A program made the translations under genes and the position numbers. The notes under the pieces were generated by a model, which saw only the letters and a program-made list of their open reading frames with translations, was not told where the DNA came from and ran no database searches. 64,000 bases of DNA from a bacterium (GTDB lineage: Bacteria > Hinthialibacterota > Hinthialibacteria > OLB16): assembly GCA_022072055.1 (NCBI GenBank), contig JAJVIK010000008.1, forward strand, positions 40,111 to 104,110, given 5' to 3'. Shown here piece by piece: positions 14,245-39,337 of the stretch. Each line of letters opens with the position of its first letter. The stretch's first letter is position 1.

Positions 14245-14260
14245 GAGCATTCCCTCCCCT

Positions 14261-16470: not shown

Positions 16471-16499
16471 ATTATAGGTCTCTTAGAGTCCGCATTCAA
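16471..16499 (-). promoter_or_regulatory. Near-consensus sigma70-type promoter (TTGAAT-17 nt-TATAAT) for the cytochrome operon
   Basis: Minus strand reads cTTGAATgcggactctaagagaccTATAATatc. Lies in a locally AT-rich 60 nt stretch of GC-rich DNA, about 60 nt upstream of the reassigned GTG start. Confidence 0.5.
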
Positions 16500-19462: not shown

Positions 19463-19495
19463 AGATCCCCACAATTGGGTTCAGGAGGCGCTCTT

Positions 19496-22663: not shown

Positions 22664-22696
22664 CGGCCCCCCGAATCATGATGACTCGGGGGGCCG
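22664..22696 (-). promoter_or_regulatory. Strong GC hairpin between the giant gene stop and the PPIase start
   Basis: cggcccccc-15 nt loop-ggggggccg, perfect 9 bp GC stem. Followed on the minus-strand transcript by a CUCUCUUAU stretch. Confidence 0.4.
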
Positions 22697-22724: not shown

Positions 22725-25700
22725 TTACTGCTGAGGGCTGGGCCTGACGATCTCCAGGTCGCGGGCCACATCGAAGCCGAAGAAGGGCGCGTCGTGGATC
22801 TTCGGCGCTTGGCCGCCGGTGTGGACTCCCCCGAAGCCATCGAGGACATACAGGCCGATAACCGCCCCGACCTCATCGATCGAGAGCTCCAAGTCACGCG
22901 CGATGTTGAATCCGAAGAACGGCACGCCGCGGGTGGTGTCCGCGACAAAGTCGCCATCGGTGATTCCTCCGGTGACAATCTGCCCGAACTTCGAGAGCAC
23001 AAAGGCCCCCTCGACCGCCAGCGTGGACGGATTCTTCACCAGTTCGATGTCGATGAAGACATCCTCATCCGGCAGGAACGGCGGAGGCGGAACAATCGCC
23101 GGGGCCGCGCCGAGGTTGGAGACTCCGCCTCGGCCATCCAGGATGTAACCGCCCTTCACGGTCCCATCCGGCTGGTAGTAGAGCTCCAGGTCGCGCGCAA
23201 GGTCGCCGCCGAGGGCCACGCCGATCAGCGGATCGGCCCCGCCGAAGGTGTAGATGCTCCCCGCGCCATCCAGCATGTAGACCCCCACCTTCGGACCGGG
23301 CTGAGTCGGAGACACCTCGATGTCCTTGGCGTAATCGCCCGAGAACGGGGTGAACCCAGTCTGGTCGACCGGTAGGACATCACCAAGGCCCGCAATCTGG
23401 CCGGTCCCGGTCATCCGGTAGAAGCCGGTCGGGGAGGCGGTGAATTCGGGCAGGGCCGGATCGCCGACCACGAAGCCGGTGTCCAGAGCGCCATTGGCGC
23501 GATAGAAGCCCGGCTCGAGGTCACGCGCCACGCCATCCGGGAGGAAGGTCGGTTGGAGCGAATCCGCCACCCCCTCCAGGCCGTTCCGCATGGTGACCCC
23601 ACCGAAGGCGTCGAGGACCGCGTAAGTCACGATCTCCACCGAGATCGGGACAATGGCGCTCTTGTTGCCGGCGAGGTCGACGGAGCGGACATAGACCGTG
23701 TCCCGCCGATCCGGGAACAGGTATGCGCCGCTGATCACATCCGGCTGCCTGAGGAGAGGTCCGATGTTGACCGCGTCCCAGGCTCCGTTGTCATCCGAGT
23801 AGAAGTTCCCGAACACCAGGACCGCGTTCAGATCGGCGGAGACCAGAACCCGCGAATGCCCCTCCACCGCGCGGTTCATGCCGATGATGTAGGCGTCGGT
23901 TTGCGGGTTCTGGGAGACCACGTAGATCTTGGTCGGATCCGGGTTGGGAATCGCGACATCCAGCGGGAGGCGCGCGGGCTGGGATTCGTTACCGAACTCA
24001 TCCTCGGCGGTGAACCAGACTGCGGCCGTGCCCACAACCGCGGGCGGATTCACCGAGTTGTCGGCGTGATTGTCGCCGATTGAGGTCTCCGGGAAGGAGC
24101 CTGGGGTCGGCACGCTGTTGAAGCCGCCGGCCGGGACCAGGATCGGGAAGCCGGGCAGCTCGCTGTTGAGGGAAGGCTCGTTGTAAGCGTGGAGCCACAG
24201 GTCCTCCTCGCCCTGACCAACCGCGCCGCGACGCCCGCGAACGGTGTCGTTGAACGCCCGTCCGCGCTCCACCAGGACAAACTCATCCAGGTTCGGAGTG
24301 GCCGGCGGCACTCGGTCGGCGGTGTCGATTTCGACGATCTCGCTAACATTGCCGTGCTCGTCAATGGCGACCACATAGCTGATCGGAGCGCCCACGCGTC
24401 CGACATCGATGGCCTGGAACGCTCCCGACCCATCCGAGAAGGCCACGCCAAGCAGCGGAGTCCCAAGGATCGAGTTGGTGAAGTCCAGAACCGAAGTGCT
24501 GAACTGGATGGTGCAGTTCGACGGAACCGCGCCCTCGATGCCCCGGATGGTGTTGTGATTCGGGTTGTCGGCGTTGAAGAGGATCCGCTCGGCATCCGGA
24601 GTCGCGATCGAGATGTCAAAGGTGAGGCTCACCGCGGTCGACCGATTGCAGGCCGAATCCTCAGCCACCAGGTACATGCGTTCGAATCCGGCCAAGTTCG
24701 CACCGACTTGGAAGTTGAAGCCGAGGGTCGAGGCGCTCCAACCGCCGGTGGCGTTGGCGAGCTCGATCGGCGAATACCCGCCGCCGACCTCAAGCAACAG
24801 GTCGGGATCGGCGAACAGGCGCACGCGAGCGGTGTCCTCCGGATCCACCGCGCCGGGGAGGCCCTCGATCAGGTCTTCGCCCGTTCCGAGCTGGTGAAGA
24901 ACCACGTTCTGGAGGTCAACCGGCGGCGGCGGAACGAGGTCGTTGACCGACCTGCCGTTTTCGCCATCCAGTACGAGCGGCGGCCCGAAGTTGAAGGCCG
25001 CGTCGCTGCACGCGATCCACAGAACCTCATACAGGTCATCCCCGATCGAGACCGGACCGAAGGCGCCGCTGGCGTCCGCGACGGTCGTGGCCACAAGCTG
25101 GGTCAGATCGAAGTCGGAGTAAATCTCCACGGTGCAGTTCGGTTCCACCGCTCCCGGAAGACCCACAACCTGGTCATCCGAGCCGGGGCAGGCCGACAGG
25201 ACTTCCACCAGATCTCCGACCGGAGCGTCCGGCGCGAAGATGTCGTTGAAGAGGCCGAATGGGAAGCTCAGGTTACCCGCCTCATCTTCGCTGGCGAGGA
25301 CCACGAACGGGTTCTGGTTATCACCGACTCGCAGGTCATAGAAGAAGCCCAGACGATCGGTGCGGATCGCGTTGTCCTCACGGTCGATCCGGTTGTTCAG
25401 GTAGGCGTCGGCGTACGCGCGGACGACGGTGAACGGATCCGTGAACCCGTAGATCGTGTCCTCGACTCCGGGCGGATTCTGGACCACGGCCACCGCGAGG
25501 AATTGCGGGCCGACCACGTCGTTGATCGCGGAAGCGATCACGTTCGAGGTGTTCCCCGCCTTATCAACGGCGCAAGCCAGGACCTCCTGGACCTTGTTGT
25601 CGCCGATTCGGACGCCCTCGATTCGGAAATCGTCACCCGGCACTCGCTGGGCAAGGATGCGGGCGGTCGGCGGGATCTGGACTCCGACGCCCGTATCCAC

Positions 25701-28700
25701 CAGGACGCTTGAGCGGCGATTGGCCTGATACATGAGAATCGTCCCATTCTCCACCGAGGCGGTGACCAAGCGACCGTAGGTGTCGATCACCGGACCCACC
25801 ATGGTGGCGGCGGGTTCGAGGAGACTGGCCTGAGCCAGCACCAGCGCGCCGTCGGTCCCCGGACGGAGCTCGGAGACGCGCTGAGGCACGATCCGTTCGC
25901 CGAGGAAGTCGAGTCCGGTCTCGCCGAAGTGCAGGCCGCCGCGACGGTCGAGGGCGAGACCCGCGGGTTCGGCCAGGTTGACCAGGACCAGGTTCAGGGT
26001 GGAGGTGGTCAAGTCAAACGAGAACACCTGACCGCTGAACGGATTCCCCGGAGTCGCAAGCAGCGAGATATAGAGGGTGGACACGCCATCAAAGGCCAGC
26101 CCACGTCCCTGCTCGGTGATGCCCGCGAGCAGCGGGGTCAGCGTGGCGAGCGCCGTGTCGTAGGCGAACACCTGGGCGCCCGATTCCGTGATGAAATACA
26201 GGACATCGGTCGCGCCGAAGGTCATGCCCGCAACCGGGGCCGGGATTGCGAAGTCGATATCCTGGAGCACCAGGCCCGTGGTGGTCATCTCGGTCAGACG
26301 GACCTGGGATGGGCTGCCCGGATTCCGGGAAGCGACCCACAGATTGCCTTGACCGAGATTGGAGACCGCCAGCCCGGTCGGCTCCACCAGACCCGTGTGG
26401 ACCGTGTTAAAGGTTCCGAACTGATCGAGACGGTAGATCACGTCATCGGCCCCCATCGCGACGCCGTCCCAGTTGCTGAAGTAGACGGAGCTTGTGGCGT
26501 CAGCCGCGAGACCGTGGAGGTTGAAGTTCGGAGCCGTGGTGAGTGTCCCCGGAGACTCGCGGTTGAGGGTCGGAGACTCGGTGAACACCTTCACGCACAC
26601 CACTTCGTCCACCTCGGCGGAGTCGATGTCGATCTGGACATCGACCTCGTCCTCAACCCTCGGGAAGGTTCCCGGCTCTTGCGGGAACTGCTCGAAGATC
26701 GAGAGTTCGGTGATCAGCGGAGCGGTGATGTCGATGTGGGCGTGAGCGGCGCCGCTGCTGTTCCCGGCGGCGTCGCAGGCGATCACATAGACAGTGTCCA
26801 GCGAACCCGGAGTGAAGCTGTTGTTGTCGCCGATATAGATCGGTCCGACACCCGGGCCGGTGACCGGAACAAGCGCGATCAGGCTGGTGAGGGCCACATC
26901 CTCGTAGACCTTGACCAGGCTGGTGTCGGCGCTGACCCAGGCGGTGAGGGTGTCATCGACGGGCACGCGCGTGCAGCCGCTTCCGATGGTGTTGTTGTGG
27001 ACGGTCACCTGCGGCTCGCCCGGTGGGGCGGTGTCGTTGCCGATTGCCAAGTCGTCGCTCTCATTGCAGGCGGCGTCCGCGACGGTCACATAGAACGTGG
27101 AGCTCAAATTGTCGCCCAAATTGAGCGTCCAGCAACCATCCGCGGCGCCATCGTCGATATCCTCGACGGAGTCGACGACGTTGAAGAGGCTATCGTCGCG
27201 GTAGACCACCACGGTGACCGCATCCGGATCGGAGGGCTTGGCGATCAGGATGTCATCCGTTCCGGGCGGATTCGAGAGAATGGTCACTTCCGCGCTGGTG
27301 AGCGGCGCGGGCGGGACAATGTCGTTCACGACGTTCACCGACGGGCTGGTGTTGCCGGAGAAGTCGGTCACAACCACCCAGACATCCTCGTAGAGGTTCG
27401 CGCCGATGGGAACCTGGAAGAAGCCGTTGCCGACGAAATCCAGCTCCGAGCCGATCAGGTCGGTTAGACCCGGGTCGGCGAAGGCCCACGCTTGGACCAC
27501 ATCCGGATCGTTCGGATCAGGGCGGACGATCACATAGTCATCCTCGTGGAAGCAGTTGGAGTCCACGGTGACAGTCGGCGTGGCGGGCGGGGTGAAGTCG
27601 TTGGCCACCGCGAACCCATTGTTGGAGATGTCCGCGACGTTGCCCCACGGATCGACACCCAGGACGACATAGCTGTAGGGCGCGCCGCCGATGGTGTCGT
27701 TATCCAGGAAGAACGTTTGCGGATCGAAGCCTCCGCCGTTGTAGAGCGAGGTCGCGGCCTTGAAGGCGACCACCTTGATGTTGTTGAAGATGGTCGCGCC
27801 TGGGGCCCAAGCCACCGGACTTTCGTCGATGTTGCGGATGGTCAGTTGGTCTCCCGAGAGGCTGTAGTTCGGGAGGTTGACCGGATCGACGGACTCGGTG
27901 GCGGATGGGATCAACCGGTTCCGCGTGGTGTCGATCACCTTGAGGAGGTCCACGTCGATGGCCGAGGTGGCCAGCGTGAGGGTGACCGTGGCCGCGTTCG
28001 GGGCGAAGCAGATCACCGGGCAAAGCGCTTCGGAGATCTTCTCGTTGTCGAAGTGGCTGAGGAACTCGATCGGGTCCCCGCCGAGGCGACGGTAAATGTC
28101 GTAGCCGGTCACGCCGACCTGATCATAGGGCGTGGAATCCCAGAACAACCCGATATCCTCGGAGAAGGGATCGGGATGCGCCTGGAGGGTCTCGATCGGC
28201 TCGGGCGGAGTCGTGTCGAAGGCCACCGCGGTGGCGTCGCCGACCAGCACGCTGGTGGAGATCAGCGAGCGATTCCCCGCCGCGTCACGCGAAACAACCG
28301 CATAAGAATAGGAGTGGCCCGGCAGCGCGGTGTGGTCCACAAAGGTGCGGTTATCGGTGAGGTAATCCACGAGCACCACATCCGTCGGCGCGGGAAGAAC
28401 GGTTCCCGTGATATCAATGGTCTCTCCGGTGGCCGCGAGGACCTGATAGGACTCGCCGGTGGTCTTGTTGAACACACGGCTCACGGATCCCACATTGAGC
28501 GGATCCATGAAGAGCACGAGCAGGTTCGGGGTGGCCGCGCTGATCGAGGCTTTTTCGGCGACCACCTGAGTCGGCTGCGGACGAAGGGTCCCGGTCGGGG
28601 TGGTCATGTCCGGAAGGATGATGTTGACCACGGTCCCGATCAGGAGGTCCGGATCGCGCACGATGTCTCCATCCGGCTCACTGACCTCGCTCTCCGCGAT

Positions 28701-31700
28701 GGGGCCGGAGCGCTGGTCGCGGAAGATCTCCCAGACCGAGATCGCGATGTTGTCGCCGGTGGGTCGGACCGGGCCGCCGCCGACCGGAACGCTCGGGATA
28801 TCCCACGAAAGCAGGATGCCGTCATCCGGCTCGCCGGCCCGGACGCGCAGGTTGGTGACCGGGTACGGATCCACCAGGTCATTCGGGGCCGCCGCGACAA
28901 TATTCGAGATGTTCCCGGCGAGACCCACGGCAAACGGCTCGCAGGCGTCATTGGTGGCGAGCGAGTTGCCGGACCAGCCGTTTCCAGCCTGGTCAAAGGC
29001 CACGATGAAGTAGGCGTAGGTCCCCTCGGGCGGGACGCTGGTGTCAAGGAACTCGGTGATCGGCTGACCGTTGCCGTCGTAGGCGCAGATCACGCCGATC
29101 AGGTCGAAGTCGGTGAACGGATTGGCGTCGAGAACATCATCCACCGTGGTTCGGGTGCGGTAGATCTCGTAGCCGATTGTTCCCACGTTATCGATGGGGA
29201 TGTACTCCCAATCGAGGCGGACATCGGGGGTGCCGAAGAGCGCCTGGGCGGTGATGATCGTCCTAGTCGGCGGGATCACGTCCAGATTGATCAGCGGCCC
29301 GAAGACCGGATCGAGGCTGTTCCCGGCGTGGTCGCGGGTGATGGTTTTCAAGTAGAAGTAGTCATCCGAGCCGGGCGTGGTCGCGGGCAGGGAGGACACA
29401 TCCCACACAAAGGTCCCGGTGGCGCAGCGAAGCGCGCTGGCCTTGGAGAGCGGGATATAGCCGCCTCCGGTCACGTCCACTATCTCGGTGGCCACATCGA
29501 TGAAGTTGCTGAAAGCAAGGAGGGCCGGGGTGGCATCCGCCGGACCCGTCGCATAGTACAGCTCCACGCTGGCCACGCCGGAGGGCGAGAAGTCGATATC
29601 CGGCTCAATGCCCGGATTGAACTCGTCGCAGGAGGTCGCTTGCGGAATGACCGGGAAGGCCAGGGTGCCGCCCAGGATGTTGGGGAGTTCGGCCAGAGTG
29701 CCGGGGAAGGCGGTGTTGAAGGCCTCGTCCCAGGCGTCCATGTTGAACATCTCGTTGCCGGTCCACACCAACGGGTTGGTGTAGGACCACAGCAAGCCGC
29801 CGCCGGTGCCGTTGGCGATGATATCCTCGGCCGGGTAATACGGGTCGGGGTCATCGGCCAGCGGAGTCTGGTTGTCGATGATGAAGCGATCGAGAAGGAC
29901 CACGGTGGTGGCGTTGGCGCAGTTGTCGGTGGCGCTCACGACGAAGTCGATGTAGGCGCTGCCGGTGGCGGGCAGGGTGAGGTTGGCGGGCGCGAAGCTC
30001 GCGGTTCCGGTCACCACGCCATTAACCGCGGGGGCGAGACTGAGCGTGAAGGTGGCGTCCGTGGCCGAGCCACCCAGCACGCTGAACAGACCGGTGAGCG
30101 TGGGCGGATCGGTGGTGACATTCAGGCCCGTGCCGAAGTCCTCAAAGCGGACGGTAAGATCCACCGTGGCCGCCGAACCGCTTGTGGCGGCGAACGGCAG
30201 CGAGGCCAAGTACGGCACGCGCGGCGCGCGGATATCCACGGTGAAAGTGATCCCACGGATCAACATGCCGGTGGCCGATTCGACATTCGGAGTCGGAACG
30301 GCGCCGTCATAGGCTTGCGAGATCACGCGAATCTGGCCTTCGCCGTCAGGCAGAATCTGGCGCAGCGTGGCCTCGGTGATCGTGGCGCAGGCGATGGCCG
30401 CCGAGGTCGGCAGGACACTGGTGTCGGGGAAGGTCAGCAAACCACGCCGGACCAAGCCGGTGGTGATGTCGGTGGCGGTGTTCACCAAGAGCGCGCTGGC
30501 GGGTCCGACTTCCACGTCGTAGGCGAACAGATCCACCCGCGACATTGGGCAGGGGGCCGTGTCGGTCACCGCCGCCGCGAGCTTGTAGGGCAAGTCGTTC
30601 AGGCAGATGGTGCAGTCATACAGGGCCGGGGCGGCCGCGACCGCGCAGACCGTGGCGCCATCCGGAATGAAGAAGGTGTTGAGCTCAAAACCCGCGTTAA
30701 AGGCGGCCTGCTCAAAGGTGGTGGCCACCTCCCGAATCACGTTGCCCATCGGCTCGATTCGACCATGGAACAGGCGGGTCCCGCTGAAGCCCATGCCGAC
30801 CGTGCGGAAGGAGGGGAGGCCGGGCGTAATGAAGTTGGTTCCGCCGGGGAAGGATTCGAAGAACCGATCCCTCGGCGGCGGCGCTCCGGCGGGATCAAAC
30901 CGTTCGGCGAAGAAGGTTCGTCCGAAGGCCCCCGAGCCGACCGCGACCACCTCAAGCTCCGCGCCCGGCAGCGGGAAGAAGGCGGGCTGAGCGCCGAGAT
31001 ACGCGCCGGTGGCCGCATCCAGCACATAGAGCTGGTCATCGCTGGCCTGCTCGTTGATGTACAGCCGGCCGCCCTCCGCGCCCATTCCGGCCACCACGGT
31101 CACGCTCGCGGGCAGAGTTAATGTGGCGGTGAGAACGATGGAACCCGGAACGCTGACGTCATAGACAAAGATGGTGTTCGCTCCGGAGGCGGAATTGGTG
31201 TCGCCGTAATAGAGCCTGTCGTTGTCATAACCAAGCGCGCAGCCGGTGGCCGAGGAGATCTCCGCCGGGAGCATCAGGCTTCCCACGACCTCCGTGTTCA
31301 AGAGGTCGCTGTGGTCCGGATCGATCTCATACAGGATGGTGCGCGAGACCGAGGCGATCTCGGTGACCGCCGCGATGAACAGGCGCGAGCAGATCGGCTG
31401 GGATTTCGGTTCAAGCGGGTCGTAGTAGAAGGTTTCGGGTGGGGAGCCGCCGAACTCGGAGTTCACGTTGGCCAGATTGATGGCGCAATCCCCCGCGGAG
31501 ACATCGATGCCGAACCAGCCTGGCTGAAGGCCAATGGCGACCGGATCGACGAGCGACGCGAGAAGGATGCCCCCCTGGTTCGGACGATCCGGCAGGGTCC
31601 CCGTGACCGATCCGATCAGCGCGCCATTCTGGTAAATCGAGGCCGCGTAAGTGCAGATCCCGGAGTCAATCCGGTAGCCCATCAGACCCGCGTCATTGGC

Positions 31701-34700
31701 GGTGAACAGGACGCCGAATAGACCATGGAAACACTCCCCGACATACGAGTTGAAGGTGAACGGATCCACCACATTGAACAGCGCCACGGCCGGATAGGTC
31801 CGGTCGATGGCATACAGGCGATTGTCCGAGGGGCCGCGAGTGATCCCATTGCAGCCGCCGAAGGCCTTGGCGCTCACCCCAAACGGGTCGCCATCACCGC
31901 AGAACGTGGCGCTGATGGGAACGTTATACGCCCACGCTCCGGAGGCATCCAAGGGGAGTCCGACCACCTGGATGGAGGTTCCCTGGAACGCGAAAGAGGG
32001 GCCGATATCGAAGGTGTCGTTAAAGATCTCCCAGTGCGACTGATCGGAGACCGAGGCCTGTGTCGGCGCGCCGGGAAGACCCGAAAGGTTGGTTTGCGCG
32101 CGCTCAAGACCATTGGTCTGGACGCCGCCGGGGACATCCCCATAGCCGGAGATGTCTTGTCCGACCACGCCGGAGTTGATGCCCACCGCGCAGTCGAAGT
32201 AGGTCACGGCATTGGTGGAGACATAATCGAGCGCGACCGCGCCGGTGTTGTAGAGCGTGATGCTGAAGGTGTTCGTGCCGAGCGTGGAGTCATCCGGGAC
32301 TGTGTCGTAGTCGATGATGAAGCGGTCGTCGTACTGACGATAGGTTGTGGTTCCACCGCTTGCTCCGGAGCCGTCGATCCGGCTCCAAAGCCCCATGATC
32401 TTGGGTGTCACCGCGTTGACCAGGGCCTGGGTCGGGACACCCGTGGAGATCGTTCCGGTTCCAAACTCGACCAGACCGCGCGCGGAGATGAACACCGAGT
32501 TCCAGCAACGGCCATAGAAGGGGAACTCGAAGCCGTTGGTGAACGGAACCTCCACGATGCTGCTGGCGTTGTGGATCATCGGGTTGAAGACATCCACCGG
32601 CGAAACCGCAGCCTCGGTGGTGGCGTCAAGCGGGGGAAGCACACTCCCACCCGGTCCGGGGTACCACAGGTCCACGCTGTCCGCGGTGGTAACCCCATCG
32701 GCGCGCAGGAAGACCACGGTTTCGTCGGTCAAGTCGTGGATCACGCTGTAGGCCTCGAACAATCCGTTGAAGACCATGTCGAATGGCCCGCCGGTGTTGA
32801 TGTCCGGCTGAATCGCGGGCGCGCCGCCGCCGGGGGAGACGCCCACGAGGAAGCCGGTCAAAGTCAGATTGCCATATTCAATGACGATGGCGCCGTTCAC
32901 ATAAAGGGTCGCGGTGGCGCTGTTGGCCCCGAAGCTAAAGAACTCTGGAACGGATTCATAACGCACAACTGCCGCGCCCGAATACAAGTCCACGGAGACA
33001 GTCCCACCGGCGCCGGGGTTGAGGTCATCCCAGAACAAGGCAATGCGTGGGAGGCCATCCTCAAACTCCACCGGCGTTTCGCTGAAATCAGCGTCTCCGC
33101 CGCCGAAGGTGATGTACCCGTTGGACCCGACATACATGTCGGAATAGGTCCCGGAGTAGAACGGGAAGTTGAACGGCAGGTTGACCTGCGTGAAGGTATC
33201 ATCACTGAGCGACAAGGCTGATGTGGAGATAAACGCGCCCAGGCTTCCCGGAACCGCCGCCGCGCCGGTGGCGTAGATCACGGATCCCGCCAACCCGGTG
33301 ATGTCCACATCGCCGTTCACGATGGCTTCGTCGTGGTCCGCGATCTGAACGGGCGGGCCATTGAGATCCACGGTCACCTGGATCGCGTCGCACTGGGTCC
33401 CGTTGCCGACTTGGTCGGTGGCAAAGGCGATAATGTCATAGACGCCATCGCCAAGCGCGGCGAAATTGACCGAGAAGGCCACGGTTTCCACCATCGCGGA
33501 CACGGCCGAAGTGCCGGAAGCGACCACACCGCCGCCGAGGTTGCGGACTTCATAGCCGACCTGGCCCGGGCAACCGCCGGTGTCCGTGGTGGTGATGATG
33601 ATGTCGGTCGCGCCGAGAACGGTGTTGGCGTAGCTGATGCACGCGCCATCCGAGGGCGCGAGAAGGGCGCACTCCGGCACGGTCGGATCCAGGACATAGA
33701 TCTCCGGAACGGCGCCGGGGTAGGTTTCGGTGACATTCGCCACATCCCGCGCGCAGTCGCGCACGACCATATTCAGGCCGAAGGGAACCAGCGAGACGAC
33801 GTTCAGGGTCACATTGCTGACAGTGGCGCTGTAGAACAGGGGACCATCATCGGGACCCCAAGGGAGGATGTCGGAGAGCGGCATCACCCCCACATAAATG
33901 TCCTCGGGGCCGATCGCGGCGACCTGCACTCCGCCCTGCCACACCTCCAGCTCCACATCGCAGATCCCGGAGTCGATCCGCCAGCCGGGAACTCCCACAT
34001 CGCTCAGGATGCCGTCGAGCTCCAGGGTCAGGTCGGAGCACCCTCCTGGAGTGACGTCCACATTCATGGTGACCGTCGGGTCGGTGACATCAAGGACATA
34101 CACCTTGTTGGTCGCGGGGCCGCGGGTGTTGGCCGTGCAGCCGCCGAATCCGAGCGCGCAAACGCTGAACGGATCGCCATCCGAACAGAAGGTCGGGCTG
34201 ATGACCAGGTTGGCCGACCAAGCGCCGGTGATCGGGTTAAAGGACCCCGGCGCGGTGAAGATCGTGCTACCCTGGAAGCCGATGACCGGGGTGACATCCA
34301 GGACGTTGGTGGCGTTGAAGACCTCATACTGGACCTTGTCGAGAACCGCGAACTGAGTGGCGGCGCCGGGAAGGCCGGAGATATCGATCGGATTCCTCAG
34401 CACCCCGTTGGTTACCAGCGGGATGGACTCATACCCATCCACCGGCTGGCCGGAAACGCCCCCAGCGACGCCGATGCCCACATTCGTGTCGGCGGCGGTG
34501 GAGAAATAGGTGATTGTGCCGTACTCGAATTGGACCGCGCCGGTGTTGTAGAGGGTGATGGTGATGTCGTTGATGTTCCCCGGCGCCCCGAGTGTTTCGG
34601 GAACGCTGTCGTAGATGACCTGGAAGCGATCATCAAACTGGCGATAGAAGGTTCCGCCGCCGAGGTGCCCGCCGATATCGGCGAAGAAGCCCATCACCTT

Positions 34701-37700
34701 GGGGGTCGGGCCGTTGACATTGGCGGGAGTGGGGGCGAAGACGCTGAGCGCGGCGGTGGTGTTCTGGCCGAACTCGAGAAACCCGTGGTTGCTGACCACC
34801 ACGGAGTTCCAGCACTTGCCGAAGAAGGGGAACTCAAAACCGTTGGTGAAGGCGATTTCGATCCCTTGATCCGGTCCGCCGAGCGGATTGAATCCGACCG
34901 AAACCGGAGCCACGGCCGCTTCGACAGCCGGGGGCAGCGGGGGCAGCACATCGCCGTTGGGGCCCGGGTACCCGATGAGAACCGAGGTCGCGCCGGAGGT
35001 CCCAACCAGGTCGTTCTGTGGGAGGAAGGCAATCGACAGGTTGTCCAGATCGGCGGGGTTGCCGAGCGTCGTGAAGATTTCATAGCTGCCGGTGGCGCTC
35101 ATGGTGACCGGGCTGGCGGCGCTGATGTCCACCGCGCTCACCGGACCCCCGAAGCCGGGGGCCACTCCGGCAAGGCCATCCGTGCTGTTCATCCCCTCGT
35201 ACTCGAACAGGATCGCGCCGGTGGAATACAGGGTCACTCGGAAGGTGTTCTGGTCCATGATCCCAAACTGCGGGACATTGATCCAGCGGATGATGAGCCT
35301 ATCGGCTTGTTGTTCGGAGGTGATGGAGCCCGCCGCGGCCGGGTTGAAGTCGTCCCAGAAGGGCGCGATGCGCGGAACTCCGTTGGTGAACTCCGCCACG
35401 GACTCGGTCGGGTCGGGGTCGCCGTTCTGGAAGGTCAGGTTGCCGTTCGAGTTGACCCACACGCTGTCATAGAGCACGCCGAAGAACGGGAAGGCGAACG
35501 AGCCGCTGAAGTTGACCTCGACCGAATCGTCATCCCCCGGCGTGAGGGCCGACTGACCGGCCGGAGTCCCCGGTCCCGGAAGCCCGGAGCTCCCGGAGGA
35601 GAAGGTCGGGACCGTGGAGAAGCCGTTGACCGAGAGGTTGTCGTTCACAATCGCTCGGAACGGATTGTTGATGGTGGTGAGCGGGCCGGTGGTGCGAACC
35701 GTGAAGGTGATCTGGTCGCACTGGCCGCCGTTGCCGACTTCGTCCGTGGCCTGGGAGATGAGGGTGTAGGTTCCATCGCCCAATCCGACCACGTTTTCGC
35801 TGAAGGTGAAGGTCGCGCTGGTCCCGGAAACGCCGACCGTGGCTGAGGCCACCACCGCGTTCAGGCTGTTGAGGATCCGGTAGCCGATCGCCGCGAGGCC
35901 GGAGCCGAGATCGGTGGCCGAGATGGTGATGTCGGTGGCCCCGAGCACGGTGTTATCGAAGCTGAAGCAGACTCCATCCTCGGGGGCATCGATCGAACAG
36001 GTCGGGGCGGTGAGGTCCACGATGACCTCGAAGGTCACGCAGCAGATGTTGGCGGTTCCGGTGGCGCCATCCACCAGGCAGACATTGATGTCGGACACAT
36101 CTCCATCCCCGAGGCCGTAGGCCGTCGGGTCGAAAGGCGAATTGATCGGAGTGCTCCCGAGCGCGGGCGGATCGGAGGTGAAGAGAACATCCGTGGCTCC
36201 GGTCAGCAAGGCCGTGGCGTTGGCGGCGGTCACCCCCGTGTCGAAGGATGAGGAGGCGTCGTCATCCCCCAAGGTCGCGGAAAGAACCAATCCGGCGGCC
36301 CCCACAAAGACACTGGAGCCCGCGGTCGGGAATCCGAGAACCGCGCACGAGGAAGTGTCGTCCACAAAATAGTTTTCGGTGTCGCTGCCCTGCAGGTTGG
36401 CGGCATCCACCGCGTAAGCGGTAACCGAAAAAATCTCGTCATCCGAAAGCAGCGGATCGACCGGGATCACGGCGCTCCAATTCACATTGAACGCGCCGGG
36501 GTTGTCCACGGTCGCCACCACGACCGAGGTTCCGCTGTCGGTGGTGTATTCCACGGTCACCGCCTGAACCCCGGAGCCGAGGTCGGAGGCGGTCCCCGAA
36601 AGCAGGAAGCTCACGTTCACTCCCACATTGGGCGGAAGCGGGCTGGTGATGTCCACCACGGGCGGAACGGTGTCCACTCGGACCACGACGGAATCGCAGA
36701 CCGTGGCGTTCCCGACCGTGTCCGTGGAGCTCATGATCAAGGTGTACAAGCCATCCGCGCCCGGATTGACCAAACCGGTGACCTGGGTCACCCCGCAGAT
36801 GGTGGTCACTCCGACCACTTCCACGCAGGATTCCAGGACACCCGCCGCGCCCACATCCGTGGCTTGGCCGATAATCGAGATGGCGGTGACCACATCCCCG
36901 GAGGCGGGAGAGATCAGGCTGCAAATCGGCGGCTCATAGTCCGCGGTGACCGTGGCCGAGGCCCCGAAACACTCGTTACCCACGTCAACCGCCCCGTCTC
37001 GAGCCTCGATCGTGATAATCGATGTTTCCCCGTGGTTCAGATTGAAGTCCAGGGTGGGGAGGATATGGATACCACCCAAGGCGGGCGGAGGACCGGATGT
37101 GTAAACCTCAGTCGCCCCGTTCAATAGAGCGGTCAAAGTGACTTGGTTGATCCCGGCGTTGCAGGCCCCGAGGAAATCATCATCGTCGGCGGAAACGATG
37201 AAGGCGCCGCCCCCGGGACCGAAAACCGAGGGCGCGCTGATGAAGGCGATCGGGCACAAGTTGTCCACGCAGAAGCAGGATGTGGCGACTCCGACCAGGC
37301 CACAGTCATCCAGCGCCTCCACGGTCACGTACAAAATTTCATCGTCCGCGAAGAGCGGATCCACCGGAACAACGCCGGTCCAAGCCGAGGTTCCCGAGGC
37401 CAGAACAAAACCGGACCCCGTGCTGGTGGAATAGTTGACCGTCACGCTCACGATGGTGGCGTTGGCGTCCACTGCGGTTCCCGACAGGGCGAACTGGACG
37501 TTCACGGGCGTGTTCTTGGTGGGAGAGTCCACCGTCACCGTGGCGGGAGTGTTATCGATCCGAATGGTGAAATCGGGCCCCGCGCCCGGGTCTCCGGATC
37601 CGGTTTCCAGGCTGTTGCCGTTATAGTCGGCGGCGGTCGCGGAGTAAGTGTACAGCCCATCCGGCAAGGTGGTTGTGTCGAACGAGACTTGAGCCGTTCC

Positions 37701-39107
37701 GGTGCCGGGGCCGACGGTCACGTTGGAGGCGACCCCGATGGTGTTTCCATTGAGTTCAAAGGTCACGGTCTGAATCCCGCCGCCGGCGGGGGAATCATCC
37801 GAGACTGTCGCGCTGAAGATGACCGTGCCGTTGACCTTGGCCCCATCGGCCGGCGTCGCCAGCTCGATCAGGTCGGGCGGCAGGATGTCCGTGGTGAGGA
37901 GCGAGACCGAGTTCGAGACGCACGAGGTCCGGTTGTTGTCGGTGACCAGGACGATGCCGTAGGTGTAGGTCACGTTGTTGAGACGTGGAAGGGTCGGATT
38001 GGAGGGGGTGTGGTAATAGATGATCGTGTCGTTCGAGGTTCCCGAGGAGTAATTGATCGAATCAATCAGGAAAGAAGACCCCAGGTTCGAGGAGTCGATC
38101 AGCGCGCCGTCATCGCGCGCGTACACGCGAACCACGGCGGGGGTGACATCGCCGGGGTCGCTGACCAGCGACAGGGTGTTCATGGTGAAGCTCACGCAAT
38201 TCACGGGGACCCCCGCGAGGAGGAGTTGCGCGGCGGCCACGTCATCCGGCGGGGTGACCGCCGAGGCGCGCTGGTTTGAGGAAAGGGGCGAACCGCCGCT
38301 CTGATTCCCCACCGTGTCCTGGATGCGGATGCCGTACGCAAGGGCCGTCCCGGCGGGCGCCGGGTCGGTGTAGGTCGTGGAGTTATCCCGGTCGTAGGGG
38401 AAGATCTCCTGGGTGGTGACGATGTTCCCGGGGACCGGGTCGGAGGTCAGGTCGAAGGCTTCGGATTGGGCCACTCGGTAGAGGATGAAATCGAAGCGAT
38501 AGTTGGCGCTGGGAGAGGCGAACTGGCGAACCGGGTGGAGGACCGGGTTCGAACCAGAGTCGCCGACTTCATCGTTCGGATTGACAAAGGCGACATCGAC
38601 ATTGCCGGTCCCATCGCTGCAAGTCAGCGTGAACTGGTTGATTCCCATCGTGGAGGGCGGGTTGGCGTCCGCCACCGCCCCTTGGATGCTGGAGGGAACA
38701 TCGCCGCCGATCCCGACCTCCTTGGCCCGGACCAGGTACCAGTATTCGCCCGCGCTGACCGTGGTCGTGCCCGCGTTGAATCCATTGGCCACGTTGGTGG
38801 CCTCAAGTCCCGTATTCACCAGGGTCGTGGGAGCGCCGTCGTTCACAGGGATATTGGAACCGATCAGCGTTCCCGCGGTGAAGGCTCCGATGACCGGCAT
38901 CACGGAGGAGCTGATCCGATACACATCCACTGAGAGCGCGCCCGCGGCTGTGTTGGAGACCGTGAAATTCAAGCTCACGATCCCCCCCGGCCCCGGCACG
39001 GTCGTGAGGTCGGTGTTGAAGACCACCGCGGAGGCGCGCGGCGCGCACACTCCCGCGAGGATGGTGAAGATCGCACCAAGGGTAAACGCTGAACGCAGCC
39101 GGGACAT
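22725..39107 (-). CDS. Giant secreted multidomain repeat protein (5460 aa): Ig-like, FN3-like, beta-propeller and NIDO-like domains, C-terminal repeat array
   Basis: Single uninterrupted 16.4 kb ORF. Start assigned to the ATG preceded by AAAGGAGG (6 nt spacer), giving signal peptide MSRLRSAFTLGAIFTILAGVCAPRASA. Thr/Gly/Asp/Val-rich and Lys-poor. Confidence 0.85.
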   Translation of the reverse strand: MSRLRSAFTLGAIFTILAGVCAPRASAVVFNTDLTTVPGPGGIVSLNFTVSNTAAGALSVDVYRISSSVMPVIGAFTAGTLIGSNIPVNDGAPTTLVNTGLEATNVANGFNAGTTTVSAGEYWYLVRAKEVGIGGDVPSSIQGAVADANPPSTMGINQFTLTCSDGTGNVDVAFVNPNDEVGDSGSNPVLHPVRQFASPSANYRFDFILYRVAQSEAFDLTSDPVPGNIVTTQEIFPYDRDNSTTYTDPAPAGTALAYGIRIQDTVGNQSGGSPLSSNQRASAVTPPDDVAAAQLLLAGVPVNCVSFTMNTLSLVSDPGDVTPAVVRVYARDDGALIDSSNLGSSFLIDSINYSSGTSNDTIIYYHTPSNPTLPRLNNVTYTYGIVLVTDNNRTSCVSNSVSLLTTDILPPDLIELATPADGAKVNGTVIFSATVSDDSPAGGGIQTVTFELNGNTIGVASNVTVGPGTGTAQVSFDTTTLPDGLYTYSATAADYNGNSLETGSGDPGAGPDFTIRIDNTPATVTVDSPTKNTPVNVQFALSGTAVDANATIVSVTVNYSTSTGSGFVLASGTSAWTGVVPVDPLFADDEILYVTVEALDDCGLVGVATSCFCVDNLCPIAFISAPSVFGPGGGAFIVSADDDDFLGACNAGINQVTLTALLNGATEVYTSGPPPALGGIHILPTLDFNLNHGETSIITIEARDGAVDVGNECFGASATVTADYEPPICSLISPASGDVVTAISIIGQATDVGAAGVLESCVEVVGVTTICGVTQVTGLVNPGADGLYTLIMSSTDTVGNATVCDSVVVRVDTVPPVVDITSPLPPNVGVNVSFLLSGTASDLGSGVQAVTVEYTTDSGTSVVVATVDNPGAFNVNWSAVIPVDPLLSDDEIFSVTAYAVDAANLQGSDTENYFVDDTSSCAVLGFPTAGSSVFVGAAGLVLSATLGDDDASSSFDTGVTAANATALLTGATDVLFTSDPPALGSTPINSPFDPTAYGLGDGDVSDINVCLVDGATGTANICCVTFEVIVDLTAPTCSIDAPEDGVCFSFDNTVLGATDITISATDLGSGLAAIGYRILNSLNAVVASATVGVSGTSATFTFSENVVGLGDGTYTLISQATDEVGNGGQCDQITFTVRTTGPLTTINNPFRAIVNDNLSVNGFSTVPTFSSGSSGLPGPGTPAGQSALTPGDDDSVEVNFSGSFAFPFFGVLYDSVWVNSNGNLTFQNGDPDPTESVAEFTNGVPRIAPFWDDFNPAAAGSITSEQQADRLIIRWINVPQFGIMDQNTFRVTLYSTGAILFEYEGMNSTDGLAGVAPGFGGPVSAVDISAASPVTMSATGSYEIFTTLGNPADLDNLSIAFLPQNDLVGTSGATSVLIGYPGPNGDVLPPLPPAVEAAVAPVSVGFNPLGGPDQGIEIAFTNGFEFPFFGKCWNSVVVSNHGFLEFGQNTTAALSVFAPTPANVNGPTPKVMGFFADIGGHLGGGTFYRQFDDRFQVIYDSVPETLGAPGNINDITITLYNTGAVQFEYGTITYFSTAADTNVGIGVAGGVSGQPVDGYESIPLVTNGVLRNPIDISGLPGAATQFAVLDKVQYEVFNATNVLDVTPVIGFQGSTIFTAPGSFNPITGAWSANLVISPTFCSDGDPFSVCALGFGGCTANTRGPATNKVYVLDVTDPTVTMNVDVTPGGCSDLTLELDGILSDVGVPGWRIDSGICDVELEVWQGGVQVAAIGPEDIYVGVMPLSDILPWGPDDGPLFYSATVSNVTLNVVSLVPFGLNMVVRDCARDVANVTETYPGAVPEIYVLDPTVPECALLAPSDGACISYANTVLGATDIIITTTDTGGCPGQVGYEVRNLGGGVVASGTSAVSAMVETVAFSVNFAALGDGVYDIIAFATDQVGNGTQCDAIQVTVDLNGPPVQIADHDEAIVNGDVDITGLAGSVIYATGAAAVPGSLGAFISTSALSLSDDTFTQVNLPFNFPFYSGTYSDMYVGSNGYITFGGGDADFSETPVEFEDGLPRIALFWDDLNPGAGGTVSVDLYSGAAVVRYESVPEFFSFGANSATATLYVNGAIVIEYGNLTLTGFLVGVSPGGGAPAIQPDINTGGPFDMVFNGLFEAYSVIHDLTDETVVFLRADGVTTADSVDLWYPGPGGSVLPPLDATTEAAVSPVDVFNPMIHNASSIVEVPFTNGFEFPFYGRCWNSVFISARGLVEFGTGTISTGVPTQALVNAVTPKIMGLWSRIDGSGASGGTTTYRQYDDRFIIDYDTVPDDSTLGTNTFSITLYNTGAVALDYVSTNAVTYFDCAVGINSGVVGQDISGYGDVPGGVQTNGLERAQTNLSGLPGAPTQASVSDQSHWEIFNDTFDIGPSFAFQGTSIQVVGLPLDASGAWAYNVPISATFCGDGDPFGVSAKAFGGCNGITRGPSDNRLYAIDRTYPAVALFNVVDPFTFNSYVGECFHGLFGVLFTANDAGLMGYRIDSGICTYAASIYQNGALIGSVTGTLPDRPNQGGILLASLVDPVAIGLQPGWFGIDVSAGDCAINLANVNSEFGGSPPETFYYDPLEPKSQPICSRLFIAAVTEIASVSRTILYEIDPDHSDLLNTEVVGSLMLPAEISSATGCALGYDNDRLYYGDTNSASGANTIFVYDVSVPGSIVLTATLTLPASVTVVAGMGAEGGRLYINEQASDDQLYVLDAATGAYLGAQPAFFPLPGAELEVVAVGSGAFGRTFFAERFDPAGAPPPRDRFFESFPGGTNFITPGLPSFRTVGMGFSGTRLFHGRIEPMGNVIREVATTFEQAAFNAGFELNTFFIPDGATVCAVAAAPALYDCTICLNDLPYKLAAAVTDTAPCPMSRVDLFAYDVEVGPASALLVNTATDITTGLVRRGLLTFPDTSVLPTSAAIACATITEATLRQILPDGEGQIRVISQAYDGAVPTPNVESATGMLIRGITFTVDIRAPRVPYLASLPFAATSGSAATVDLTVRFEDFGTGLNVTTDPPTLTGLFSVLGGSATDATFTLSLAPAVNGVVTGTASFAPANLTLPATGSAYIDFVVSATDNCANATTVVLLDRFIIDNQTPLADDPDPYYPAEDIIANGTGGGLLWSYTNPLVWTGNEMFNMDAWDEAFNTAFPGTLAELPNILGGTLAFPVIPQATSCDEFNPGIEPDIDFSPSGVASVELYYATGPADATPALLAFSNFIDVATEIVDVTGGGYIPLSKASALRCATGTFVWDVSSLPATTPGSDDYFYLKTITRDHAGNSLDPVFGPLINLDVIPPTRTIITAQALFGTPDVRLDWEYIPIDNVGTIGYEIYRTRTTVDDVLDANPFTDFDLIGVICAYDGNGQPITEFLDTSVPPEGTYAYFIVAFDQAGNGWSGNSLATNDACEPFAVGLAGNISNIVAAAPNDLVDPYPVTNLRVRAGEPDDGILLSWDIPSVPVGGGPVRPTGDNIAISVWEIFRDQRSGPIAESEVSEPDGDIVRDPDLLIGTVVNIILPDMTTPTGTLRPQPTQVVAEKASISAATPNLLVLFMDPLNVGSVSRVFNKTTGESYQVLAATGETIDITGTVLPAPTDVVLVDYLTDNRTFVDHTALPGHSYSYAVVSRDAAGNRSLISTSVLVGDATAVAFDTTPPEPIETLQAHPDPFSEDIGLFWDSTPYDQVGVTGYDIYRRLGGDPIEFLSHFDNEKISEALCPVICFAPNAATVTLTLATSAIDVDLLKVIDTTRNRLIPSATESVDPVNLPNYSLSGDQLTIRNIDESPVAWAPGATIFNNIKVVAFKAATSLYNGGGFDPQTFFLDNDTIGGAPYSYVVLGVDPWGNVADISNNGFAVANDFTPPATPTVTVDSNCFHEDDYVIVRPDPNDPDVVQAWAFADPGLTDLIGSELDFVGNGFFQVPIGANLYEDVWVVVTDFSGNTSPSVNVVNDIVPPAPLTSAEVTILSNPPGTDDILIAKPSDPDAVTVVVYRDDSLFNVVDSVEDIDDGAADGCWTLNLGDNLSSTFYVTVADAACNESDDLAIGNDTAPPGEPQVTVHNNTIGSGCTRVPVDDTLTAWVSADTSLVKVYEDVALTSLIALVPVTGPGVGPIYIGDNNSFTPGSLDTVYVIACDAAGNSSGAAHAHIDITAPLITELSIFEQFPQEPGTFPRVEDEVDVQIDIDSAEVDEVVCVKVFTESPTLNRESPGTLTTAPNFNLHGLAADATSSVYFSNWDGVAMGADDVIYRLDQFGTFNTVHTGLVEPTGLAVSNLGQGNLWVASRNPGSPSQVRLTEMTTTGLVLQDIDFAIPAPVAGMTFGATDVLYFITESGAQVFAYDTALATLTPLLAGITEQGRGLAFDGVSTLYISLLATPGNPFSGQVFSFDLTTSTLNLVLVNLAEPAGLALDRRGGLHFGETGLDFLGERIVPQRVSELRPGTDGALVLAQASLLEPAATMVGPVIDTYGRLVTASVENGTILMYQANRRSSVLVDTGVGVQIPPTARILAQRVPGDDFRIEGVRIGDNKVQEVLACAVDKAGNTSNVIASAINDVVGPQFLAVAVVQNPPGVEDTIYGFTDPFTVVRAYADAYLNNRIDREDNAIRTDRLGFFYDLRVGDNQNPFVVLASEDEAGNLSFPFGLFNDIFAPDAPVGDLVEVLSACPGSDDQVVGLPGAVEPNCTVEIYSDFDLTQLVATTVADASGAFGPVSIGDDLYEVLWIACSDAAFNFGPPLVLDGENGRSVNDLVPPPPVDLQNVVLHQLGTGEDLIEGLPGAVDPEDTARVRLFADPDLLLEVGGGYSPIELANATGGWSASTLGFNFQVGANLAGFERMYLVAEDSACNRSTAVSLTFDISIATPDAERILFNADNPNHNTIRGIEGAVPSNCTIQFSTSVLDFTNSILGTPLLGVAFSDGSGAFQAIDVGRVGAPISYVVAIDEHGNVSEIVEIDTADRVPPATPNLDEFVLVERGRAFNDTVRGRRGAVGQGEEDLWLHAYNEPSLNSELPGFPILVPAGGFNSVPTPGSFPETSIGDNHADNSVNPPAVVGTAAVWFTAEDEFGNESQPARLPLDVAIPNPDPTKIYVVSQNPQTDAYIIGMNRAVEGHSRVLVSADLNAVLVFGNFYSDDNGAWDAVNIGPLLRQPDVISGAYLFPDRRDTVYVRSVDLAGNKSAIVPISVEIVTYAVLDAFGGVTMRNGLEGVADSLQPTFLPDGVARDLEPGFYRANGALDTGFVVGDPALPEFTASPTGFYRMTGTGQIAGLGDVLPVDQTGFTPFSGDYAKDIEVSPTQPGPKVGVYMLDGAGSIYTFGGADPLIGVALGGDLARDLELYYQPDGTVKGGYILDGRGGVSNLGAAPAIVPPPPFLPDEDVFIDIELVKNPSTLAVEGAFVLSKFGQIVTGGITDGDFVADTTRGVPFFGFNIARDLELSIDEVGAVIGLYVLDGFGGVHTGGQAPKIHDAPFFGFDVARDLEIVRPSPQQ
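22728..23640 (-). repeat. C-terminal array of about 6 degenerate 45-65 aa repeats (motif A-R-D-L-E-L ... G-x-Y-V-LDG-x-G-G-V) ending the giant protein
   Basis: Repeated ARDLELYYQPDGTVKGGYILDGRGGV, ARDLELSIDEVGAVIGLYVLDGFGGVHTGG, AKDIEVSPTQPGPKVGVYMLDGAGSIYTFGG. Protein ends inside a truncated unit FFGFDVARDLEIVRPSPQQ. Confidence 0.55.
30880..35560 (-). repeat. Diverged tandem duplication (2 x about 2.3 kb, about 770 aa each) inside the giant gene, each copy carrying two NIDO-like domains
   Basis: Copy 1: FAFPFFGVLYDSVWVNSNGNLTFQNG (about 35500) and FTNGFEFPFFGKCWNSVVVSNHGFLEF (about 34850). Copy 2: FNFPFYSGTYSDMYVGSNGYITFGGG (about 33170) and FTNGFEFPFYGRCWNSVFISARGLVEF (about 32545). Period about 2305-2330 nt. 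Confidence 0.7.
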
Positions 39108-39304
39108 GGCTTGCCTCCTTTGACTCATGTTCGGACCGCTTGAGTTATTCACAGGGGGTGTTGAAAACAAGGTGGGCGCGGCAATACAACAGTGACCAGA
39201 CACAGCTCGTCTCCTTCGATTCGAACCAAATCCCTCTTCCTCGCATTGACGCGCGGAAGAACCCCATCCCAGAACAACGGCAAAGAAAGGACACTGATCA
39301 GCGC

Positions 39305-39337
39305 GATGCTACGCCAAGCCCCCTCGGTGTGTCAACG
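39305..39337 (-). promoter_or_regulatory. Candidate sigma70-like promoter for the giant gene (TTGACA-18 nt-TAGCAT)
   Basis: Minus strand gTTGACAcaccgagggggcttggcgTAGCATcg, about 200 nt upstream of the start, inside a 520 nt intergenic region with AT-rich patches. Confidence 0.3.

Follow-up and report, generated by a model that had tools for sequence, protein, structure and literature searches.

The 64,000-nucleotide (nt) window analyzed here, i.e. positions 40,111 to 104,110 of contig JAJVIK010000008.1 (assembly GCA_022072055.1), carries on its minus strand a single unbroken open reading frame (ORF) of 5,492 amino acids (aa), which spans 39203..22725 from a GTG start in the ORF listing. The biologically sensible start of this giant gene is the ATG at 39107, which yields a 16.4-kb gene (39107..22725, minus strand) with a 5,460-aa product. 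The sequence AAAGGAGG sits six bases 5' of this ATG, and the protein begins with MSRLRSAFTLGAIFTILAGVCAPRASA, followed by VVF. This start is a canonical signal for Sec export and signal peptidase I, in which an n-region with positive charge precedes a hydrophobic core and cleavage is marked by an ASA motif. The NCBI gene call MCG3197400.1, made on a 368,911-bp contig and labeled "hypothetical protein", consists of exactly the same 5,460 aa with the same start, and under this label the sequence is already public. The original prediction, a reading of the sequence alone that gave no strand, was therefore right in its coordinates, length, ribosome-binding site (RBS) and signal peptide. The protein is strongly acidic (627 Asp + Glu versus 181 Lys + Arg, with 0.6% Lys) and rich in Gly, Val, Ala, Thr, and Asp. 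Its signal peptide, which has no canonical lipobox, is the sole strongly hydrophobic, transmembrane (TM)-like stretch found by a hydrophobicity scan of the 5,460 aa. The signals at the two ends of the gene are as follows.

39306..39335, minus strand: sigma-70-like promoter candidate, TTGACA-18-TAGCAT, matching the consensus at 10/12 positions
39114..39121, minus strand: RBS AAAGGAGG, read from the sequence; the NCBI call shares the start that it serves
39027..39107, minus strand: Sec signal peptide, aa 1-27, MSRLRSAFTLGAIFTILAGVCAPRASA, cut after ASA, read from the sequence
22725..22727, minus strand: stop codon, from the ORF listing and the sequence
22664..22696, minus strand: GC-rich hairpin of 15 bp with a T-rich tail, just 3' of the stop codon; terminator or attenuator candidate

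The giant gene is intact and conserved

A repeat scan of the giant gene found no tandem DNA repeats, and its direct repeats did not exceed 83 nt at 73% identity, so that collapse of repeats during assembly is unlikely. Residues 1-1217 recur at 100% identity in a second metagenome-assembled genome (MAG; GCA_013360775.1, labeled Candidatus Omnitrophica), in a locus cut by a contig end (L001). Another contig of that MAG encodes a 433-aa partial protein, which clusters with the giant protein at an identity of at least 90% and adjoins a SurA-like gene. Orthologues were found at three loci in the genome collection (L005, L006, and L007, the last labeled Omnitrophota) and at one in the metagenome collection (L083), and all four ORFs are cut by contig ends. 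They are collinear with residues 2147-5460 (L005), 4841-5460 (L006), 2901-5460 (L007), and 2359-5459 (L083) of the giant protein at 52-66% identity, which is ~52% over stretches of up to 3,300 aa. Because collinear orthologues exist in four genomes and long DNA repeats are missing, the giant gene can be taken as coding and conserved rather than as an assembly artefact. An artefact or a decaying pseudogene, with a long ORF arising by chance in GC-rich DNA, might be suspected since residues 1218-2146 are backed by a single assembly and the GC-rich DNA of this region does yield long spurious ORFs on other strands. However, a stop-free frame of 16.4 kb is far beyond chance, both ends of the gene recur in the second MAG, the gene has no repeats that could collapse, and the homologies of its domains are real. 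In view of these points and of the four orthologues, we regard an artefact as extremely unlikely; the giant gene is real and intact.

The signals flanking the gene point to how it may be transcribed. The promoter candidate lies ~200 nt upstream of the start codon, and 0.1 such sites were expected in shuffled sequences. The hairpin behind the stop codon (folding free energy of -38.6 kcal/mol and z = -3.7 in the window) is kept in all five loci, with stems of 14-16 bp of the form GGCCCCCCGAxTC...GAxTCGGGGGGCC and a T-rich tail. Its approximate positions are 10275-10307 in L005, 1933-1965 in L006, 7973-8006 in L007, and 9377-9409 in L083. The stems in L005, L006, and L083 are near-identical; L007 has a stem of other sequence, followed by the canonical T tract TTTTCTTTTC. 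As a promoter-like site precedes it and a conserved terminator-like hairpin follows it, the giant gene looks like a transcription unit of its own. The hairpin is probably an intrinsic terminator or attenuator, which would set the ratio of transcripts of the giant gene and of the SurA-like gene that follows it.

The C-terminal repeat array belongs to a large protein family

The last 302 residues of the giant protein form an array of short repeats.

22728..23633, minus strand: C-terminal array, aa 5159-5460, of ~45-aa units with the motif YVLDGxGGxH...PYFGxDIARDLE; predicted six-bladed beta-propeller

Its internal repeat is highly significant (z = 16). A search with aa 5150-5460 retrieved 168 homologous proteins with E values down to 3e-57, which share the consensus YVLDGxGGxH-x(8-12)-PYFGxDIARDLE in tandem units of ~42-46 aa. 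Their alignment has invariant L-D-G-x-G-G, D and A columns. The array is confidently predicted to fold as a six-bladed beta-propeller closed by its last strand, and the structural neighbors of this predicted module, as assessed by Foldseek, are beta-propellers, with fucose-binding lectin propellers among the top ones. In 40 members examined with Pfam, the repeat is not covered by any model; no NCBIfam model matches it in the giant protein, and no PDB sequence matches the family profile. The literature searched contained no description of the repeat motif or of propeller-type wall-binding domains; a single match to the motif, from Gardnerella, was rejected as a GGGS-linker artefact. The array, put forward as novel in the original prediction, is thus real and absent from Pfam, NCBIfam, and the PDB, but it is not unique. 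Indeed, a profile search of 1.84 billion cluster representatives returned 3,090 members at E ≤ 1e-3, of which 971 at E ≤ 1e-30, i.e. ~3,000 protein clusters.

The genome collection contains at least 526 matching stretches. Among the matches listed, most are from Acidimicrobiia, other Actinomycetota, Dormibacterota, and Chloroflexota; two Acidobacteriota genomes have many paralogues, and Omnitrophota and Auribacterota have a few members. In 75 genome loci, the distance from the end of the module to the stop codon is mostly no more than ~50 aa. The domains to which it is fused in the homologues include glucosaminidase, Amidase_2, CHAP, M23, C39_2, GH18, and polysaccharide deacetylase (in 64 genome-derived ORFs, glucosaminidase occurs 6 times, Amidase_2, GH18, and C39_2 3 times each, and M23 once), as well as CAP, TIG, FG-GAP, PQQ-type propellers, and proteases. 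Such a distribution of a repeated, usually C-terminal module, over secreted enzymes that act on the wall and over large surface proteins, fits the profile of a domain that binds or targets the wall non-covalently. By this profile, the C-terminal propeller of the giant protein is a putative non-covalent anchor that binds cell wall or glycan, which points to a partial answer to the question of anchoring raised in the original prediction.

As a separate observation, the complete Acidobacteriota genome OZ244217.1 (5.87 Mb) contains at least nine genes ending in the propeller repeat (loci L008, L014, L019, L030, L037, L055, L074, L075, and L082), a marked expansion of paralogues; a second genome, the MAG CAYSHI01, is likewise expanded.

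The N-terminal half combines Ig-like units with four NIDO domains

The domains of the remainder of the chain were mapped by self-BLAST of the protein combined with Pfam and NCBIfam matches on tiles. The two databases recognize very little of the giant protein, and the orthologues are equally dark. The N-terminal half, with its immunoglobulin-like (Ig-like) units, comprises the following features.

37848..39026, minus strand: N-terminal region, aa 28-420; no family match, Y.Y.V.A.D..GN-type motifs
35541..37847, minus strand: Ig-like array, aa 421-1189; Big_3_3 at 31.9 bits and Big_13 at 32.4 bits
31398..36089, minus strand: duplicated module of ~770 aa, aa 1007-1800 and 1778-2570; self-BLAST, E down to 1e-40
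34977..35540, minus strand: NIDO 1, aa 1190-1377; Pfam 24.7 bits, family profile E 1e-65
34464..34877, minus strand: NIDO 2, aa 1411-1548; family profile E 4e-19
32685..33203, minus strand: NIDO 3, aa 1969-2141; family profile E 3e-50
32157..32555, minus strand: NIDO 4, aa 2185-2317; family profile E 3e-23

Residues 28-420 had no match in Pfam and PDB sequence searches. Judged by their motifs, they probably consist of beta-sandwich (FN3/Ig-like) units and, if the C terminus is the anchor, they would be the distal tip of the molecule. In the array that follows, both Big_3_3 and Big_13 exceed the gathering cut-off of 27 when Pfam is run on a 2,800-aa tile, and self-BLAST detects a super-repeat of ~300 aa, with residues 470-770 resembling 772-1070. 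NCBIfam gave a weak OmpL47-type barrel match in the same array; such "barrel" matches correspond to soluble Ig-like barrels and not to a membrane barrel. Most Ig-like units are too divergent to score in Pfam. The Ig-like units proposed originally are thus supported at weak to threshold-level scores, by Big_3_3, Big_13, and, further along the chain, Big_6.

The two copies of the ~770-aa module are 40-50% identical, and each consists of an Ig-like part, two successive NIDO domains and a Cys-containing tail. The Pfam model for NIDO (PF06119) scores 24.7 bits on the first unit, just short of its cut-off of 25 (E 2.7e-5, profile positions 1-54), and does not match units 2-4 directly. The region is, however, 40-50% identical to more than 100 bacterial proteins of ~880 aa that Pfam does assign to PF06119. 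A hidden Markov model (HMM) built from these relatives finds all four units, with E values from 1e-65 to 4e-19, which confirms the four NIDO-like domains that had been claimed. NIDO domains are known mostly from animal matrix proteins, and their presence in bacteria is a second, minor point of interest.

Possible propeller blocks and further beta-sandwich units in the middle of the chain

Between the duplicated module and the C-terminal array, two conserved blocks are embedded in repeats.

30438..31385, minus strand: conserved block, aa 2575-2890; 42% identity to L005, YWTD-like motifs such as GCALGYDNDRLYYGD
29238..30437, minus strand: putative Ig-like region, aa 2891-3290; inter-domain D.x.PP motifs, no family match
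27603..29237, minus strand: plausibly FN3-like region, aa 3291-3835, of four to five units; GYEIYR/GYDIYR motifs, repeat z = 5.0
26586..27602, minus strand: about four Big_6-like Ig repeats of ~95 aa, aa 3836-4174; self-BLAST and Big_6
25563..26585, minus strand: propeller-like block, aa 4175-4515; six ~48-aa units with an L.EP.GLA.D..G.LY-type motif (NHL/ScyE-like)
23634..25562, minus strand: about seven Big_6-like Ig repeats of ~95 aa, aa 4516-5158; self-BLAST and Big_6

The first block (aa 2575-2890), not mentioned in the original prediction, has a faint match to the YWTD repeats of LRP6 (E 0.16), and its internal repeat falls short of significance (z = 1.6). Possibly, it forms a YWTD-like beta-propeller. 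The succession of NIDO domains and this block (aa 1007-2890; 30438-36089) loosely echoes the order NIDO...YWTD propeller of animal nidogen, a likeness that is probably coincidental. Residues 2891-3290 are considered Ig-like by their inter-domain motifs.

In the FN3-like region, the NCBIfam model CbhB matches aa 3585-3673 with its positions 751-838, which we take to be FN3 repeats, at E 7e-8 and far below the model cut-off. No Pfam fn3 match was obtained at E ≤ 5, and a profile search of the PDB was empty. The motifs, the repeat signal and the CbhB match make an FN3-like fold plausible, which leaves the FN3-like units of the earlier reading weakly supported. The Big_6 repeats that flank the second block score 21.7 bits in the giant protein, below the cut-off of 27.6, and 28.2 and 30.7 bits in orthologues, above it.

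The second block (aa 4175-4515) was already read as a beta-propeller in the original prediction. Searched on its own, it matches NCBIfam ScyD/ScyE at E 5e-6 (26 bits versus a cut-off of 80) and TIGR03118 at E 0.007, its internal repeat reaches z = 3.4, and it is 42-44% identical to L005 and L007. On the other hand, a single-sequence AlphaFold model was uninformative, with a predicted local distance difference test (pLDDT) score of 34. No homologue of the two blocks, combined in one query, was found in a set of 5.8 billion proteins, and their profiles gave nothing significant among PDB sequences. An NHL/ScyE-type propeller is plausible here, if weakly supported. Both halves of the giant protein likewise found nothing significant among PDB sequences, and HMM searches assigned no domain to an unrelated family, most of the protein being dark to Pfam. 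Taken together, the protein is almost entirely beta-stranded. Most of its chain consists of divergent beta-sandwich (Ig/FN3-like) units, interrupted by four NIDO domains and by two conserved, possibly propeller-forming blocks of ~320 aa.

No classical signals for anchoring or secretion were detected

We searched the giant protein for known means of export and retention. The sole LPxTG is internal (aa 3045), and the C terminus, ...ARDLEIVRPSPQQ, has no hydrophobic stretch. A regular expression for the GGxGxD motif of RTX proteins found zero occurrences. In no tile did a Pfam or NCBIfam model for a membrane barrel, a C-terminal domain of the type IX secretion system (T9SS) or PEP-CTERM match at E ≤ 0.1, and Pfam found neither SLH nor SecA. 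A Pfam scan of the ORFs in the window detected no secretion-system genes, including elements of type II, type V, or type IX systems (T2SS, T5SS, and T9SS). The statement that no LPXTG, RTX, PEP-CTERM, T9SS, or barrel signal is recognizable therefore holds at this sensitivity. Of the two roles suggested at first, S-layer association found no evidence, the SLH domain being absent, whereas an adhesin-like role is the best reading of a secreted, giant, multi-domain chain with Ig-like units and four NIDO domains that lacks the classical anchors.

Such a chain might be a classical giant adhesin that uses a known route, i.e. the type I secretion system (T1SS) with an RTX signal, a T5SS autotransporter or intimin, T9SS, LPXTG, or PEP-CTERM, with its signal having been missed. 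LapA, SiiE, and Bap-type proteins resemble the giant protein in size and Ig-rich composition, and there is a weak Ca_tandemer match (E 0.078). Against this, the protein carries a Sec signal at its N terminus, unlike T1SS substrates, its C terminus is wholly taken up by the propeller, and the motifs and models of these routes gave the negative results listed above. We consider a missed classical signal very unlikely and this explanation already largely refuted.

Neighboring genes

Three genes lie on the downstream side of the giant gene.

21646..22656, minus strand: SurA-like peptidyl-prolyl isomerase (PPIase)/chaperone, with SurA_N and rotamase domains and its own signal peptide; Pfam, and "Chaperone SurA" at NCBI
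19475-21589, plus strand: secreted 704-aa ORF between the PMT_2 and SurA-like genes; signal-peptide-like N terminus, no Pfam match
17864..19462, plus strand: PMT_2 (GT-C) membrane glycosyltransferase, convergent with the giant gene; Pfam

The SurA-like gene is directly downstream of the giant gene on the same strand, as it is in L005, L006, L007, and L083, and its product is a candidate folding helper for the giant protein. A tight operon of the two genes was considered, but it is weakened by the conserved terminator-like hairpin between them. The order of SurA-like, PMT_2, and ribokinase (PfkB) genes is also kept in the four orthologous loci; a link between PMT_2 and the giant protein is speculative. 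The 704-aa ORF is an insertion in the genome of the window since it is missing from this position in these four loci. Upstream, the giant gene is flanked by trpF and a radical-SAM gene. In L005 (14426-18067, plus strand) and L006 (6143-9781, plus strand), a protein of ~1,213 aa with dockerin type I and FN3-like parts is encoded a few genes from the giant gene; no counterpart was found at the corresponding position of the window.

The remainder of the window gives some indication of the organism. A minus-strand cluster at 6196-16499 encodes very large c-type multiheme cytochromes of 796 and 944 aa, with fused membrane domains of the cytochrome b561 type, as well as other multiheme proteins, a 4Fe-4S protein and a membrane subunit resembling NrfD. 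This cluster has the appearance of a module for respiration or extracellular electron transfer. A 3-keto-disaccharide hydrolase/ThuA fusion (333-1838, plus strand) and a DUF6807 protein (44507-45679, minus strand) belong to families that are typical of Planctomycetota and Verrucomicrobiota-type genomes. These families, a GC content of 62% and the respiratory cluster suggest that the organism is not a typical reduced-genome member of Omnitrophota. Purine and tryptophan biosynthesis genes are also encoded, as are two sets of restriction-modification genes, i.e. a D12 adenine methylase with a SacI-type endonuclease (1912-3911, plus strand) and a 1,095-aa Eco57I/MmeI-like methylase fusion followed by a 785-aa ORF without a Pfam match (49302-55006, minus strand).

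A model for the giant protein

These features can be combined in a model in which the giant protein would be exported by the Sec pathway, lose its signal peptide and fold outside the cytoplasm, possibly with the aid of the SurA-like chaperone encoded next door. Its C-terminal propeller would bind non-covalently to a cell-wall glycan, either peptidoglycan or a polymer containing N-acetylglucosamine (GlcNAc), and thereby hold the protein at the envelope. A stalk of ~100-150 nm, as estimated from typical domain size, would be built from the ~40 beta-sandwich domains and would display the NIDO and propeller-like modules, which would bind surfaces or partner cells. The protein would thus act as a fibrillar adhesin. 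We see the chances of this model as a whole as evenly balanced.

Several points weigh against it. The proposal of wall binding comes solely from fusion partners and C-terminal position, the partners include domains unrelated to the wall (CAP, FG-GAP, PQQ_2, and proteases), and no member of the family was found in the literature searched. The conserved hairpin argues against obligatory co-transcription of the giant and SurA-like genes, and synteny with SurA, PMT_2, and PfkB may merely reflect the close relatedness of the five genomes. Given the fairly close relationship of these genomes, with 50-70% protein identity, and the hairpin that separates the two genes, functional coupling is suggestive only. 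Finally, Omnitrophota encode outer-membrane secretin components (PMC10066038), so that a peptidoglycan-bound protein would be periplasmic unless it is exported further, for which the window offers no T2SS, T5SS, or T9SS element.

An alternative would be a protein internal to the envelope of a diderm cell, i.e. a periplasmic or outer-membrane-associated scaffold that is tethered to peptidoglycan by its propeller. The protein has a Sec signal only, with no recognizable device for translocation across an outer membrane, a chaperone of the periplasmic SurA type is encoded by the adjoining gene, and Acidobacteriota, which we take to be diderm, also have many copies of the module. However, a protein this long (5,460 aa), in which ~40 beta-sandwich domains in tandem are combined with NIDO domains, is typical of extended extracellular fibers and would be hard to fit in a periplasm, and both its strong acidity and its domain types match surface adhesins. 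We consider such a scaffold quite improbable, and less likely than the main rival to our model, in which the polarity of the molecule is reversed.

In that rival, the propeller would be a lectin-like targeting end that grips the wall of a host or prey, or an environmental polysaccharide, and the protein would be released, or retained on the producer in some other way. The module is also present on secreted lytic enzymes, where the wall of the substrate would be the target, in keeping with what cell-wall-binding domains do in lysins, and fucose-binding lectin propellers are among its top structural neighbors. A targeting end would also suit the episymbiotic or predatory lifestyle proposed for Omnitrophota, whose giant proteins have been proposed to serve in adhesion to prey (10.1101/2023.11.21.568195; PMC10066038). 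Most carriers of the module, however, are free-living Actinomycetota and Dormibacterota, in which the hydrolases are equally likely to be autolysins acting on their own wall. Moreover, the respiratory multiheme cytochromes and biosynthetic genes in the window are not those of an obviously reduced symbiont genome, and no alternative self-anchor is detectable by Pfam, NCBIfam, or the hydrophobicity scan. Reversed polarity is, in our estimation, unlikely.

Anchoring by a wall-binding propeller, as in our model, would explain the retention of the giant protein, allow thousands of hypothetical proteins to be annotated, and provide a handle on what Omnitrophota-type cells attach to. We put forward tentatively, and with some doubt, a broader version of this idea. 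The array would represent an undescribed and widespread six-bladed propeller domain that binds peptidoglycan or GlcNAc-containing wall polymers, and hence a new class of non-covalent anchor or targeting module. This class would be common to autolysin-type hydrolases of Actinomycetota, Dormibacterota, and Chloroflexota and to giant surface proteins found in Omnitrophota. In the latter, it may serve to attach the cell to the wall of a prey or partner cell.

Comparison with known systems

The giant proteins described in Omnitrophota measure 10-147 thousand aa, have many TM helices and often contain SecA-DEAD, dockerin, or enzyme domains (10.1101/2023.11.21.568195; PMC10066038; 10.64898/2026.06.07.730766). 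Their genes are preceded by T2SS/Tad-like loci, and a conserved PPIase is encoded within the T2SS-like locus (West-Roberts et al., 10.1101/2023.11.21.568195). The giant protein in the window shares with them the phylum label (by NCBI record names), a sequence largely dark to Pfam, a proposed role in adhesion and a PPIase gene nearby. Unlike them, it measures 5.46 thousand aa, has a lone signal peptide and no TM helices, and is encoded downstream of trpF with no secretion-system genes in the window. Membership of this membrane-spanning class was therefore rejected on the grounds of size and the absence of a TM segment, of SecA and of a T2SS-like locus. Giant surface proteins rich in Ig-like domains are common, and Omnitrophota are already recognized for their giant ORFs; the protein therefore adds another, simpler example, with a signal peptide only, no membrane-spanning segments and a purely beta-rich architecture.

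The ~880-aa PF06119 proteins, from Gammaproteobacteria and Acidobacteriota, are the relatives of its NIDO units, all four of which are 40-50% identical to their paired NIDO domains. These proteins carry PPC and sometimes M10 peptidase domains, neither of which was detected in the giant protein, where the NIDO pairs lie instead in a duplicated 770-aa module of a giant Ig-rich chain.

As for the C-terminal array, its identity to six-bladed propellers of the YWTD, NHL, and lectin types (LDLR/LRP6, nidogen G3, Ralstonia RSL-like lectin, and the PknD sensor) is 5-12%, without a Pfam or PDB sequence match, and Foldseek indicates a generic propeller similarity only. Known C-terminal modules for non-covalent wall binding include SLH, CWB2, LysM, GW, choline-binding repeats, and SH3b. 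Like these, the array is repeated, usually C-terminal, and common to wall hydrolases and large surface proteins; unlike them, it is a predicted propeller instead of a solenoid, SH3, or LysM fold, and it has no sequence relationship to them in Pfam or NCBIfam. The module is a useful by-product of this analysis, considering that its ~3,000 clusters have no Pfam, NCBIfam, or PDB representative and are repeatedly fused to peptidoglycan- or chitin-active enzymes.

The closest functional parallels are the giant fibrillar Ig-repeat adhesins, such as Bap, Ebh, SiiE, LapA, and MpIBP. In common with these, the giant protein is an acidic chain of several thousand residues, in which long arrays of divergent beta-sandwich domains are combined with few specialized binding modules and for which adhesion is presumed. 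It differs from them in having a Sec signal with no LPXTG, RTX/T1SS signal, retention module, or barrel, in its NIDO domains, and in its proposed anchor, an undescribed C-terminal beta-propeller. The giant protein would thus work like the fibrillar Ig-repeat adhesins, and it belongs to no named anchoring class.

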